A stretch of DNA of 64,000 bases, from contig OZ242358.1 of assembly GCA_965208835.1 (NCBI GenBank), positions 1,280,001 through 1,344,000 on the forward strand. Reading direction: 5' to 3'. Positions 4,616 through 63,651 of the stretch are shown here, in pieces. The notes below the pieces were generated by a model that made no database searches, was not told where the DNA came from, and saw nothing but the letters and a program-made list of their open reading frames with translations. This DNA is from Candidatus Latescibacterota bacterium (GTDB taxonomy: Bacteria > Latescibacterota > UBA2968 > GCA-2709665). Within the stretch, counting starts at the first letter, position 1; every line of letters begins with the position of its first letter. The position numbers and the translations under genes were made by a program.

Positions 4616-5734
4616 CTACCCCGAATAACGTCTCACCCTTTCCCGGTCCAACTCAATCCCCAGTCCCGGAGTGGTGGGTATGGAAAGCAGGCCGGCGTCG
4701 TCGAGCTGGAAGGGTTCGGTGAGGATGTCTTCTATGTAGGGCGACGGGGTGATGTATTCCACCCAGCGGGCCGTAGGATGAGCGGCGGCCAGGTGGAGGT
4801 CCGCCGCCAGGCCTACCGCGGTGTTCCATCCGTGGGTGACCAGCAGCACGTTGTGATTGCATGCGTGCCAGAGGATGCGGCGGGTCTCCGAAAGGCCGCC
4901 GACTTTCGTGGCGTCCGGCTGAACGATATCGAAGGCGCCGCGCGCAATCCAGGAAATGAAGCTTTGTCGACGGGTCAGGACCTCGCCCCCGGCAATGGGG
5001 ACTGGGGCGTTTTGACGCAGGGCGATGAATCCCTCGAGATCGTCCGGCGGCAGGGCTTCCTCGAACCAGACCACGTCGTAGCCGGCCAGCATCCGCGCGG
5101 TTTCGAGCGCCCATTTATACCCGTGCGGCCAGAACTGATCGCTGCCGCCCGCGTCGACCATCAGTTCGACATCCGGTCCCACCGTGTCTCGAGCGAGCTT
5201 GACGAGACGTTCGTCTGTGCGCATGTCCTCGCGGCCGAAGGGTCCCCAGCCGAGCTTGAGCGCGCGAAAACCCCGGGAAACGGCCGACTCCAGAGTCTGT
5301 TTGAAAGCAGCGTCGTCTGCCTCGAAGAGGAGGGAGCCATAGGGCTTGATCCTGTGTCGGTAATATCCACCCAGAAGGCGACCCACGGGTTGTCCGCTGG
5401 CTTTGCCCAGGAGGTCCCACAATGCGATGTCGATGCCCGAAATGGCGTGCGTGACCGAGCCGCCCCGGCCCTGCCAGAAGGTCGACTGGTGGAGTTTTTC
5501 GGAGACGCGTTCCGGTTCGATGGCCGATTCACCGATAAAGTGGGGTTTCAGAAGATCCAGCGCGGCGTCCACCAGGGCCCTGCTGGTGGCCACGCTTCCC
5601 AGCCCGGTCAGGCCGCTGTCCGTATGCACTTCCAACAGCGTGTGCAGGTTTTCCGACGGCGGCGTTTCGGCTGCCCAGCCGGATTTCGGCGTTGCTCCCA
5701 TGAGAGCGATTGTCTGGATACCGGTAATTTTCAT
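4616..5734 (-). CDS. Mandelate racemase/muconate lactonizing enzyme family protein
   Basis: 'AISGIDIALWDLLGK', KLG, LMVDAG, WFEEAL, AGGE, DIVQPD; start moved to MKITGIQT (5734). Confidence 0.88.
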   Translation of the reverse strand: MKITGIQTIALMGATPKSGWAAETPPSENLHTLLEVHTDSGLTGLGSVATSRALVDAALDLLKPHFIGESAIEPERVSEKLHQSTFWQGRGGSVTHAISGIDIALWDLLGKASGQPVGRLLGGYYRHRIKPYGSLLFEADDAAFKQTLESAVSRGFRALKLGWGPFGREDMRTDERLVKLARDTVGPDVELMVDAGGSDQFWPHGYKWALETARMLAGYDVVWFEEALPPDDLEGFIALRQNAPVPIAGGEVLTRRQSFISWIARGAFDIVQPDATKVGGLSETRRILWHACNHNVLLVTHGWNTAVGLAADLHLAAAHPTARWVEYITPSPYIEDILTEPFQLDDAGLLSIPTTPGLGIELDRERVRRYSG

Positions 5735-6139: not shown

Positions 6140-6356
6140 GGGTAGACGTAAGCCGGTAGACGGGAGAGCACCACACCCCGCCCCACCACCGGGTGAGACG
6201 AAAGACGGGAGAGGGGAGAGATTTCCTGCCTTGTGAGGATTCTTTTCGTGTCGAAGACAAGAAGGAAAAACATACCGGGCAAGGATTTCTTCTCCCATCT
6301 CACCTCTACCGGCTCCCCGCATTTCTCCTACCGTCTACCCTCTTCCCTCTCACCGC
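6140..6356. repeat. Outer pair of 4x heptamer arms (6140-6167, 6327-6356) enclosing copy C1
   Basis: GGGTAGA CGTAAGC CGGTAGA CGGGAGA ... CCTACCG TCTACCC TCTTCCC TCTCACC GC. Confidence 0.7.
6190..6320 (-). repeat. 131-bp heptamer-armed intergenic element, copy C1
   Basis: On the minus strand: GC + 4 heptamers + 71-bp core (AGAAATCCTTGCC...TGTCTTCGACA...GGCAGGAAATC) + 4 TCT heptamers. Confidence 0.9.
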
Positions 6357-17786: not shown

Positions 17787-17971
17787 GAAAGAGAAGAAAG
17801 TCGAGGAGAGAGTGGAGAGAAGTGAGAAAAGAGTGGAGAGAAGTGAGAAAAGAGAGGGTCGAGGGCCTCTCGCTTCTCTACCCTACCGCGGCTCCCGATC
17901 TGCATTTCCTCACTCCTCACTCCTCTTTTCTCTCTCCTGGCTCTTCACTCCTCCCTCCTCACTCCTCGCTT
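17787..17971. repeat. GAG-heptamer purine/pyrimidine element, copy D1
   Basis: 8 GAGNNNN units (17803-17858), then 9 CTCNNNN-type units (17909-17971); homologous to 44371-44536 in inverted orientation. Confidence 0.85.
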
Positions 17972-23796: not shown

Positions 23797-23803
23797 TCCA
23801 GAG

Positions 23804-23933
23804 GCGGGAAGAGGTGAGACGGAAGCCGGGAGAAGAAATCCTTGCCGATCTGTTCCTCCTCTATGCCTCCGGCAAAATTTGAAACCCTACGAGGCAGGTC
23901 GTCTCTAACCTCTTACGTCTCCCGTCTCCCCGC
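23804..23933 (+). repeat. Heptamer-armed element, copy C2 (130 bp)
   Basis: GC GGGAAGA GGTGAGA CGGAAGC CGGGAGA + 70-bp core + TCTAACC TCTTACG TCTCCCG TCTCCCC GC. Confidence 0.9.
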
Positions 23934-24012: not shown

Positions 24013-24762
24013 GTGGAACAGGATCTGTCACCGATTTTCAAGCGCTGGATCTTCGATCCACAGAAGACCTGTGCCAGAAAGATCGTGGGAATCGACGGAC
24101 GGGAGAAGCTTCAGGTCCGTTTCGAGCTGGGCCTTTTGCAGATGGAGATGACCGGTCGACCCGACGGCAAGTCCCCCAAAGGATATGGCTCGGCCCTTGA
24201 TGCGTACCTCGATCGTCTGGAGGCGCACCGCCGACAACACGGTTCAGATGAAGGTTTCCGGCTGGATGAACAGGCATGCAATGTGTTGTGGACGGAGGGA
24301 GTACAATTCTATCAGCGGTACGTCTGCCTGATGCATCTGGGCGACTATGAAGGGGTTTTGAGGGACACCACGCACAATCTGGCGTTGCTTGATCTGGTGA
24401 GGACATTTTCCGGAGATGAAGAGATCAAGTGTGAGTTTGAGCGTTCACGGACGTGCGTTCTCATGGTACACACCAGATCCAAGGGTGAAATCTGTCTGCT
24501 GAATGGAGATTCCGAGGGTGCACTGGAGGTGGTGCGGGAGGGTATCGAGGAAATCCGGAGCTTTCTGATCGAGTCGGGAGACCCGGACTCGCTCGAATGC
24601 AGTGATGAACTTCGTACGCTGGAAGAATGGGAGGATGAGATTCAGCGGAAATACCCCGCCTGCGCCAGGGAGAACCTTCTGGATCAGATTCAGACGGCGG
24701 TCGCAATGGAGCGTTACGAACAGGCTGCGATCTTGAGAAACCGTCTTCGCGGACTCAACTAA
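24013..24762 (+). CDS. UvrB/UvrC (UVR) motif-containing conserved protein
   Basis: 'GREKLQVRFELGLLQMEMTGRPDG', 'QFYQRY', C-terminal UVR 'AVAMERYEQAAILRNRL'. Confidence 0.8.
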   Translation: MEQDLSPIFKRWIFDPQKTCARKIVGIDGREKLQVRFELGLLQMEMTGRPDGKSPKGYGSALDAYLDRLEAHRRQHGSDEGFRLDEQACNVLWTEGVQFYQRYVCLMHLGDYEGVLRDTTHNLALLDLVRTFSGDEEIKCEFERSRTCVLMVHTRSKGEICLLNGDSEGALEVVREGIEEIRSFLIESGDPDSLECSDELRTLEEWEDEIQRKYPACARENLLDQIQTAVAMERYEQAAILRNRLRGLN

Positions 24763-24926
24763 GAAGCTGTTTTAAAATTCCCAGCGGTCTTCGCACGGCT
24801 GCAAAAGCGCCGGTCGGCGTTGGTCAAACCCACCCGTATAAACAAATATGGGCGGATTTTCCCGCCTTGACCGCCACTTTTTCGCTCGCGCTCTGGAACT
24901 CACCGGTAATTTTAAAAACAGCTTCT
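24762..24926 (+). mobile_element. MITE family B (165 bp)
   Basis: TIRs AGAAGCTGTTTTAAAATT / AATTTTAAAAACAGCTTCT; internal GGTC-GGCGTTG-N40-CGCCTT-GACC; begins in the TAA stop of the upstream gene. Confidence 0.8.
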
Positions 24927-28768: not shown

Positions 28769-28835
28769 GGTTGTTCTCTCAATCGTTTACGTCTAACTTC
28801 GGAAAGAGGTGAGCCGATAGAGGAAAAGCTTGAAA

Positions 28836-28966
28836 TCGGGAAGACGGGAGCCGTGAGCCGTGAGAAGACGTCCTTGCCCCACCGGTTCTTCGTTTATGTC
28901 ACCGACAAGAAGTGAGACCACAAGGGGCAGGAAGTCTCTTGCGTCTCCCCTCTCCCTTCTCACCTC
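28836..28966 (+). repeat. Heptamer-armed element, copy C3 (131 bp)
   Basis: GGGAAGA CGGGAGC CGTGAGC CGTGAGA + 71-bp core + TCTTGCG TCTCCCC TCTCCCT TCTCACC; extra heptamers upstream at 28801-28821. Confidence 0.85.
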
Positions 28967-37427: not shown

Positions 37428-37727
37428 ACAACAGAAGCCCGATGTCTTTCGCATCAACAGAAGGTCATTTCCCAGATATGCAATTGGTAGGAAAAACCCT
37501 TGTGGTTGGCTTGATTTTGGCTGATTGCTGTTCGCACTCGAATTGTTAAACGGTTGACTAACGCGTTGCCTGTCGCGAACACTACCAGAGCAGAGCGCGT
37601 GGTTCCGTTCTGCGCCGGAGACCGGTTGTAATCCGATGCTGGTAGGGCAAAGAATCGTGTGCGTCCGGTGAGGCGATTCGCGCTGTGCCTGTGGCAGGCC
37701 CGGCGCCCAGCGGCGACAATTCTAAAG

Positions 37728-37858
37728 GCGGTGAGAAGGTAGAGGGAAGCCGGTAGAGGAAGTCCTTGCCCGATATTTTAATCTTTCTTGCCTCTGGCAC
37801 GAGAAGAAACCTCGCAAGGCAGGCAATCTCTACCCTCTCCCGTCTTCCGTCTCCCCGC
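37728..37858 (+). repeat. Heptamer-armed element, copy C4 (131 bp)
   Basis: GC GGTGAGA AGGTAGA GGGAAGC CGGTAGA + 71-bp core + TCTACCC TCTCCCG TCTTCCG TCTCCCC GC. Confidence 0.92.
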
Positions 37859-37988
37859 TCTTAAGGAACTCGCCGAAGGCAGGGAATTTGGGGAGAGGTT
37901 TTGTGTTTGGAGTAAGTCATCCCTTCATTCTCTATAATTCGCCTTTCGTTTCTGTGTAAATTGACATCGCGGGAGTGTAAGGTTCGGG

Positions 37989-44370: not shown

Positions 44371-44536
44371 AGTGAGTAGCGAGGAGCGAGGTAAGAGGAG
44401 TGAGGAGTGAGAAGCGAGGAGTGAGGAAAGAGGAGTGAGGAGTGAGAGAAACCCACTTCTCTCCACTCTCTCCTCGCCTCTCTCTCTTTTCTCACTTCTC
44501 TCCACTCTCTCCTCGCCTTTCTTCACTCTCTCCTCT
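44371..44536. repeat. GAG-heptamer purine/pyrimidine element, copy D2
   Basis: About 11 GAGNNNN units, then a CTC arm; the minus strand shares GAAGAAAG(G/T)CGAGGAGAGAGTGGAGAGAAGTGAGAAAAGAG with D1. Confidence 0.85.
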
Positions 44537-44561
44537 ATTCTGTTACCGCGACGCAAGGTCG

Positions 44562-63415: not shown

Positions 63416-63520
63416 GTCAAGTACTCCCAAATGTGCGATGGAACCCGGAACTGCCGTGTCTAATTTAGGCGTTACGCCAATTGCGGACAAGCAGATTCAG
63501 CAGTCAGGAAAGGCATAAAG

Positions 63521-63651
63521 GCGGGGAGACGTAAGAAGGTAGACGGTAGAAGAAATCCTTGCCCGGTATGTTATCGCTTCTGGCCTCCGGCACGAGAAGA
63601 AACTTTACAAGGCAGGCAATCTCTCCCCTCTCCCCTCTTCCCTCTCACCGC
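63521..63651 (+). repeat. Heptamer-armed element, copy C5 (131 bp)
   Basis: GC GGGGAGA CGTAAGA AGGTAGA CGGTAGA + 71-bp core + TCTCCCC TCTCCCC TCTTCCC TCTCACC GC. Confidence 0.92.

Follow-up and report, generated by a model that had tools for sequence, protein, structure and literature searches.

The 64,000-nucleotide stretch of DNA analysed here (the window) contains five copies of an intergenic repeat of 131 bp, whose two arms are each composed of four degenerate 7-bp units (heptads). The same element is present in 183 strong copies in the source genome (G000) and in all 14 other genomes of the genus. The reading that we prefer, and hold tentatively, is that this is a genus-wide, modular, non-autonomous repeat in which the arms may serve as four-site arrays for protein contact, most simply on duplex DNA, and in which modules may be exchanged at arm boundaries.

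Anatomy of the 131-bp element

An earlier sequence-only reading of the window had described five copies, each with four heptamers per side around cores of 71, 70, 71, 71 and 71 nt. All five were recovered within 2 nt of where they had been placed, with the same core lengths and heptad numbers (Table 1), and a crude ORF call put all five between ORFs, as that reading had also held. As recovered, they span 6192–6322 on the minus strand and 23802–23931, 28834–28964, 37726–37856 and 63519–63649 on the plus strand. Across the 183 copies of G000, the plan of the element is GC, four heptads, a core of 69–72 bp, four inverted heptads and GC, with no ORF between the arms. Among 113 full-model matches, 78 are 131 nt in length, 23 are 130 nt, six are 129 nt and six are 132 nt.

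Table 1. Positions in the window of the five copies of the 131-bp element and of the additional modules of Copy 1.
Feature	Position	Strand	Composition	nhmmer score
Copy 1	6192..6320	-	GC + L arm 6291-6318, 71-nt core 6220-6290, R arm 6192-6219	133.1
Copy 1, extra outer left arm	6327..6354	-	GGTGAGA GGGAAGA GGGTAGA CGGTAGG	
Copy 1, 8-nt connector, outer-to-inner left arm	6319-6326	-	AGAAATGC	
Copy 1, 24-nt G-rich connector, inner-to-outer right arm	6168..6191	-	CGGTGGTGGGGCGGGGTGTGGTGC	
Copy 1, extra outer right arm	6140..6167	-	TCTCCCG TCTACCG GCTTACG TCTACCC	
Copy 2	23804..23933	+	GC, L arm 23806-23833, 70-nt core 23834-23903, R arm 23904-23931, GC	
Copy 3	28836..28966	+	TC, L arm 28838-28865, 71-nt core 28866-28936, R arm 28937-28964, TC	
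Copy 4	37728..37858	+	GC, L arm 37730-37757, 71-nt core 37758-37828, R arm 37829-37856, GC	
Copy 5	63521..63651	+	GC, L arm 63523-63550, 71-nt core 63551-63621, R arm 63622-63649, GC	

A column profile of the 183 copies gave the heptad consensus S-G-K-D-A-G-A, in which G2, A5, G6 and A7 are 98–100% conserved and the remaining positions are C/G (position 1), G/T (position 3) and G/T/A (position 4). The four freely variable positions per heptamer of the sequence-only reading are thus variable in part: three vary, each within a restricted alphabet rather than as an 'N', and position 2 is an invariant G. Positions 1, 3 and 4 are near-saturated within their alphabets, and these alphabets are complementary between the arms (K/D/S versus M/H/S), indicating that the right arm is the same duplex motif, inverted. 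Most arms are built from about a dozen heptads in free combination, so that the 183 copies have 128 different left arms and 142 different right arms. The arms are inverted yet degenerate, with four of seven letters fixed per heptad, as compared to the terminal inverted repeats of defined sequence that are the criterion for a MITE.

The number of units per arm is narrowly set. Counting of xGxxAGA units on both strands of G000 detected 470 runs of exactly four, 285 of three and 41 of five, and one strand of a 2-Mb shuffle yielded 53 three-unit and 3 four-unit runs; four-unit runs are far above chance expectation. With a strict motif, 342 of 421 arrays in G000 had exactly four units and 118 of 144 inverted pairs were spaced by 69–72 bp. 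No described family was matched in the 64-kb window at the gathering score of Rfam 15, a search that the sequence-only reading had proposed. At a permissive threshold, one copy produced matches to eukaryotic miRNA and lncRNA families with E values of at least 3.7, i.e. chance matches. The element was also unmatched in a plasmid collection.

Genome-wide copies and modular grammar

A profile built from the five window copies was run on the 5.18-Mb source genome. The 367 hits on both strands resolved into 187 loci, of which 183 scored >70 and four were weaker or partial; as the element is nearly palindromic, every strong hit had a weak mirror image on the other strand. This search had been suggested in advance as a check on the family, and its 183 copies have a preferred heptad number and core length. 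As judged with a crude ORF caller, the spacers hosting copies lie between convergent genes in 48 cases, divergent genes in 43 and co-directional genes in 92. For the co-directional spacers the same caller placed 52 copies in the same orientation as the genes and 40 in the opposite one, so that the occurrence of both orientations noted in the window extends to the genome with no preference.

Copy density is higher near the origin, with a peak of 33 per 250-kb bin near 4.75–5.0 Mb and 0–1 near 2.0–2.9 Mb; judging by GC skew, replication starts at ~5.17 Mb and ends at ~2.66 Mb. No replichore strand bias of the copies was evident. Local clustering was observed at 4,206,150–4,215,938 of the genome (L044), where ten copies in one orientation are found in 10 kb, with one to three copies per spacer and ordinary-looking enzyme genes as neighbours. 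At 441,279–442,060, three copies form a tandem with a period of 326 bp.

Two other repeats were also observed. At 3,749,125–3,749,418 of the genome (L046), the core of a 131-bp copy is split by an unrelated repeat of ~160 bp (ends CTAACAGCCCGTTGA...TCAACGGACTGCTAA; >100 copies elsewhere), which looks like a nested insertion. The window itself contains, at 24760–24926, a MITE of ~167 bp with terminal inverted repeats of ~16–18 bp (AGAAGCTGTYT...AAACAGCTTCT). This MITE gave 151 BLAST hits in G000 (101 at ≥150 bp) and hundreds of ~95% copies in five congeners, has a precise empty site in G011 and reaches a contig depth of ~100-fold in public runs.

When copies are oriented by their cores, a grammar for additional arms becomes apparent. 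In 36 of the 183 copies there is an extra left arm, attached through 6 nt of spacer followed by GC (e.g. AGAAAT+GC), and 35 have an extra right arm beyond a G-rich connector of ~24 nt (AGGTGGTGGGGCGGGGTGTGGT-type). Both extra arms are present in 17 of the 183, including Copy 1. Look-alikes of the 24-nt connector adjoin heptad arrays in a sister family. Sequences recurring outside the arms were also observed (i.e. GCTTTTAAGGAACACGCCG, GCTTCTGAGGGGCCGGGG and GATGAATAGRTACAATTCGTAAARGC; e.g. at window positions 37859–37900 and at 4,936–4,939 kb of the genome), which suggests further module types of the same mosaic system.

Distribution in relatives

By BLAST, the element was detected in 14/14 other genomes of the genus and in 0/7 genomes from other genera of the family, with weak matches in 2/19 genomes of the sister family. 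A core-to-arm junction motif (GGCAGG, 3–8 nt, right arm) was then scanned across 168 genomes of the phylum. It was found in all 15 genomes of the genus, G000 included, with 1–81 hits per genome. Outside the genus it occurred only in genus g6, one to three times in each of 8 of 21 genomes, and the rest of the 168 were without it. Loci fetched from 13 congeners, which constitute a non-random sample, contained 242 arrays, 197 of these with exactly four units, and in 58 of 61 inverted pairs the spacer was 70–73 bp. Three sister-family genomes (G034, G022 and G089; loci L062–L073) exhibited heptad dialects of their own (i.e. long arrays of GG[TC][GA]AGA, and AGT[GAT]AGA), the number of pattern hits reaching about 1,800 in a single genome.

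Pairing between the arms

The sequence-only reading had remarked that the two arms are not exact complements, and the full set of copies bears this out more strongly than was stated. Mutual information at mirror positions of the two arms was 0.00–0.11 across the 183 copies; the fixed letters are mirror-complementary and the variable letters assort independently. Own arms matched at 5.29 of 12 variable positions as compared to 5.71±0.09 for shuffled partners. Minimum free energies (MFE) of the native copies were -50.9 and -54.7 kcal/mol for the two strands, whereas chimeras carrying the right arm of another copy gave -53.2 and -57.2 kcal/mol (P = 0.9995 for the native copies being the more stable) and perfect arms would give -82 kcal/mol. 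The absence of covariation and the better folding of chimeras indicate that hairpin pairing of the arms is not selected; if anything, it is avoided.

These results bear directly on the main alternative, in which the element acts at the RNA level, the arms, co-transcribed with neighbouring genes, folding as a long imperfect hairpin that is cut by RNase III or that stabilises or insulates mRNAs, in the manner of 23S rRNA intervening sequences and Correia/ERIC-type repeats. We regard this as unlikely. In its favour, the MFE is near -51 kcal/mol and some 22 of 30 arm nucleotides remain paired in the fold, and whichever strand is transcribed, the purine-rich arm comes first (5') and the pyrimidine-rich arm last (3'). 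The conserved letters are also the pairing letters, and a hairpin with obligatory periodic internal loops therefore predicts the same conservation as does protein contact. A precedent is offered by the Coxiella 23S IVS, for which AGAAGA plus tandem GACAGAT heptamers are described before a four-helix-bundle ORF, with the RNase III 5' site at the first of these heptamers, which are in the xGxxAGA register (PMC4990558). Against such a role, own arms are less complementary and fold worse than chimeras, single-copy fold z-scores were -1.4 and -2.6, and RNAalifold returned no consensus structure from the 183 rows. Furthermore, the fixed pairs never flip between G-C and A-U in 183 × 8 heptads, a change that a purely structural constraint would allow. 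The lack of an Rfam match also argues against this role, as does the single 23S gene of the genome (3,034 nt), in which neither a period-7 array nor an arm was detected.

Evolution at orthologous sites

Orthologous sites were sampled for 27 copies in seven congeners. Of these 189 cells, 71 were covered by loci and 118 were not; the covered cells comprised 12 colinear cases, 34 with the element in a rearranged region and 25 without an element between the anchors. The 12 colinear comparisons, which derive from six loci and are non-independent, were used to measure divergence by site class. Differences were observed at 1/358 fixed letters, 22/268 variable letters and 84/844 core positions, as compared to 94/1129 in the intergenic flank and 295/2965 beyond the flanks. 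In these same 12 comparisons the fixed letters differed significantly from the flank (P = 8e-11) and from the variable letters (P = 7e-8), and a smaller ortholog sample agreed on divergence by site class. This distribution indicates that the variable letters and the core are neutral and that constraint in place is confined to four letters per heptad. The proposal in the sequence-only reading of a scaffold selected for geometry rather than sequence is upheld for geometry, since the core drifts at the flank rate and four-unit arms with 70–72-bp spacing are kept across species; it does not hold for sequence, as four letters per heptad are constrained.

Differences between genomes at the inspected junctions consisted of whole modules. 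At one site, the outer arms are identical in G000 and G011 and the interiors differ, with one core of another kind in G011 in place of the connector-arm-core-arm-connector series of G000; further versions were seen in G002 and G009. Orthologs of Copy 2 were present in G011, G009, G006 and G005 and absent in G002, those of Copy 3 were present in G011, G006 and G009 and absent in G005 and G002, and an identical Copy 5 was found in G011. One orthologous copy in G009 is shorter by exactly one heptad. No target duplication was seen at the flanks of copies, in agreement with the sequence-only reading, or at the inspected altered orthologous sites. The comparison of filled and empty sites that had been proposed as a check thus yielded presence, absence and rearrangement, and no clean empty site: the empty or altered sites inspected carry other sequence or whole-module differences. 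Adjacent same-orientation arms were no more alike than random ones (7.08 versus 7.44±0.24; 6.20 versus 6.40±0.24), which provides no sign of arm duplication on insertion.

The suggestion that the element is non-autonomous is in keeping with its copy number, its restriction to one genus and its presence, absence or rearrangement at orthologous sites. Searches for Y1 transposases and among the neighbours of solitary arms identified no transposase gene sharing the ends of the element, and the sole ORF found between arms encodes a four-helix-bundle protein of 119 amino acids. A purely selfish mobile element, the arms of which are end-binding or recombination sites for a transposase or recombinase encoded elsewhere and which has no role after insertion, is an alternative that we consider improbable. 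Junction hits varying from 1 to 81 among the 15 congeners, the 25 of 71 covered cells without an element, same-orientation local clusters (e.g. the ten copies in 10 kb) and a core drifting at the flank rate are all in its favour. It predicts uniform decay, however, whereas the fixed letters are held in place (1/358 versus 94/1129 in the flank). Neither a target duplication nor a clean excision site was seen, unlike the 167-bp MITE of the same genome, no Y1/RAYT gene was detected, and adjacent arms lack excess similarity.

A by-product of heptamer slippage, or solo-arm remnants of four-helix-bundle cassettes, without any selected property, is a very improbable source of the family: intergenic heptamers are reported to be over-represented in bacteria, with polymerase slippage proposed as a cause (PMC4692102), one G009 ortholog lacks exactly one heptad and other genera of the phylum contain long arrays of homogeneous heptamers, but the heterogeneous units within arms hinder slippage, array length is fixed at four rather than polymorphic, the fixed letters are strongly constrained, and a conserved core with fixed spacing is unexpected of remnants.

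Under the preferred reading of a modular protein-contact repeat, the currency of the system would be the 28-bp arm of exactly four degenerate heptads. A putative protein that reads the heptads would make its contacts at G2, A5, G6 and A7, with changes allowed at positions 1, 3 and 4, and the 71-bp core, with arms inverted either side of it, would mainly set the inter-arm distance. Arms are also joined to one another via the fixed connectors (8 nt; 24 nt and G-rich), and differences between loci would arise as whole modules are gained, lost or replaced where arms begin and end, possibly through recombination between arms.

Association with four-helix-bundle genes

The sequence-only reading had likened the arms to repeats around four-helix-bundle genes, correctly as it transpired; its statement that no such ORF is present holds for the window only. 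G000 contains four genes of this family (PF05635), two of which are embedded in SGKDAGA arms and abut 131-bp copies; the other two are associated with different heptad dialects. Versions with an ORF between the arms, which that reading had suggested looking for, are thus present as four-helix-bundle gene cassettes. The arm-embedded gene (TIGR02436/PF05635; 119 aa) is located between the genes for S18 and L9. In this spacer, an arm-cassette-arm arrangement was observed in G000, G011 and record L075; G002 lacks the cassette, and only one arm precedes the shared flank there. The arm-embedded subfamily (≥86% identity) is present in 7 of the 15 genomes of the genus, and the cassette was flanked by arms in 4/4 further genomes where it was located, the locus in a fifth not having been found; the sequences around it differed. 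Its 3' end is conserved as GGCACTCAYATCA plus arm. As arms bound this mobile cassette, the 131-bp unit can be viewed as its ORF-less counterpart. Similarity of the core to the non-coding parts of the cassette was weak (best z of 3.3 among four comparisons), and a common CCTTGCC at the same offset after the arm had a z of 1.4.

The association extends to other lineages. Within the phylum, 13 period-7 arrays were found within 500 bp of 6 of 14 four-helix-bundle genes, with none at periods 5, 6, 8 or 9. Across many phyla, 21 of 80 such genes had a period-7 array no more than 400 bp away, as compared to seven for period 8, two for period 9 and none for periods 4, 5, 6 and 10. At several period-7 loci, the array on one side is approximately the reverse complement of that on the other. 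The link is not obligatory: the PF05635 family was unmatched in G034, which has 1,845 arm hits, and in the congeners G005 and G012. The number of four-helix-bundle genes as compared to the number of arms exhibited a trend only. Among the neighbours of 20 solitary arms (ordinary genes, unique cargo and nested repeats) no candidate for a binding protein was identified.

Other dialects were also observed. The window contains inverted arrays of a second heptad dialect (GGAGTGA/GGAGAGA) at 17835–17937 and 44383–44547. The same dialect flanks another four-helix-bundle gene at 607,590–607,901 of the genome and builds 45-bp and 82-bp tandem repeats at 607–608 kb and 1,514 kb. In a Luteimonas cucumeris record (L093), heptamers of the ACGAATC type adjoin a four-helix-bundle gene and resemble the GGGAATC of Xanthomonas, which hints, on sequence likeness, that the heptamer dialect of a lineage may match the arms of that lineage's own cassettes.

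The four-helix-bundle protein is thus a candidate for the heptad reader, one not required for persistence of the arms. A broader proposal, which we put forward as speculative and consider doubtful at present, is that heptad arrays are cognate docking sites of the four-helix-bundle family (23S-IVS-protein/Avd-like), that subfamilies recognise specific 7-nt dialects, that the gene travels inside a pair of arrays and that ORF-less modules are its satellites.

Comparison with known systems

The BIME/REP (PU) mosaics of enterobacteria and REPIN-RAYT systems comprise hundreds of short intergenic units with a mosaic grammar, fixed-length connectors and a repeat-flanked cognate gene. The heptad family is similar in having intergenic units in both orientations, inverted doublets of about 100–130 bp and a repeat-flanked gene, and its mosaic also has fixed connectors (the 8-nt connector in 36/183 copies, the ~24-nt connector in 35/183 and the 69–72-bp core in 118/144 pairs). 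In BIMEs the unit is a palindromic REP of ~35 bp, whereas here it is an array of four degenerate heptads for which pairing is not selected. The repeat-flanked gene also differs from that of REPIN-RAYT systems, being one for a small four-helix-bundle protein without known catalytic activity. RAYT (Y1 transposase, PF01797) had no matches in G000, and matches were obtained in 6 of 14 control genomes. By analogy, then, the heptad system appears to work most like BIME/REP mosaics and REPIN-RAYT, and lacks the RAYT and the palindromic unit that define them.

Correia/NEMIS and ERIC elements likewise lack an ORF and are intergenic imperfect palindromes of about 100–160 bp, with hundreds of copies that lie in either orientation. 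In these elements the terminal inverted repeats are contiguous and defined in sequence, and those of the Correia type have a TA target duplication; the arms described here are, in contrast, periodic and degenerate, with no duplication seen. The omega protein of plasmid pSM19035, a ribbon-helix-helix protein, binds cooperatively to operator or centromere arrays of consecutive 7-bp units in direct or inverted orientation; one protein unit contacts each 7-bp unit, and tight binding requires several of them. This may serve as an analogy of operation only, as omega arrays occupy few plasmid sites and are unrelated in sequence, as compared to hundreds of arrays in a chromosome here.

The 167-bp MITE is likewise short, ORF-less, multi-copy, intergenic and variable between species. 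Its contiguous terminal repeats of ~16–18 bp and its precise empty site in G011 have no equivalent in the heptad element. With the 23S IVS carrying an S23p/PF05635 ORF, the heptad family shares heptamers of the xGxxAGA register, which in Coxiella lie beside the ORF, its arms bounding a PF05635/TIGR02436 cassette in this genus. The 131-bp unit differs in having no ORF, in being intergenic rather than within rRNA, in its 183 copies and in arms that are not selected to pair.

Lineage-specific intergenic heptamers, sometimes in inverted pairs and of unexplained function, include GGGAATC in Xanthomonas and GGGGAYT in Nostoc (PMC4692102). As described there, these are tandem arrays of variable length with near-identical units, whereas the arms here have exactly four heterogeneous units and a conserved spacer. 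Classification as a heptamer simple-sequence repeat was not supported, given the heterogeneity of the units and the proportion of four-unit arrays (342/421 in G000 and 197/242 in 13 congeners). Supplements aside, the literature searched contained no heptad-armed elements, nor heptamer arms around PF05635 genes except in Coxiella. The titles and abstract openings of papers on PF05635/TIGR02436 mentioned no flanking repeats.

Biological significance

Interspersed repeats of bacteria are usually explained as hairpins or as transposon ends, and the heptad family fits neither explanation well. Its periodic, diverse arms, with pairing not selected and four letters per heptad held between species as the remainder of the element drifts neutrally, provide a testable signature of a multi-site recognition scaffold. 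The presence of these arms around a mobile PF05635 gene, and of period-7 arrays beside such genes in many phyla, ties the orphan function of PF05635 to the excess of heptamer repeats in bacterial genomes. If the docking proposal were true, it would supply a function for a widespread orphan protein family and explain the 7-nt repeat excess in bacterial intergenic DNA, and would represent a partnership like that of REPIN and RAYT built on a small, non-enzymatic nucleic-acid-binding protein.
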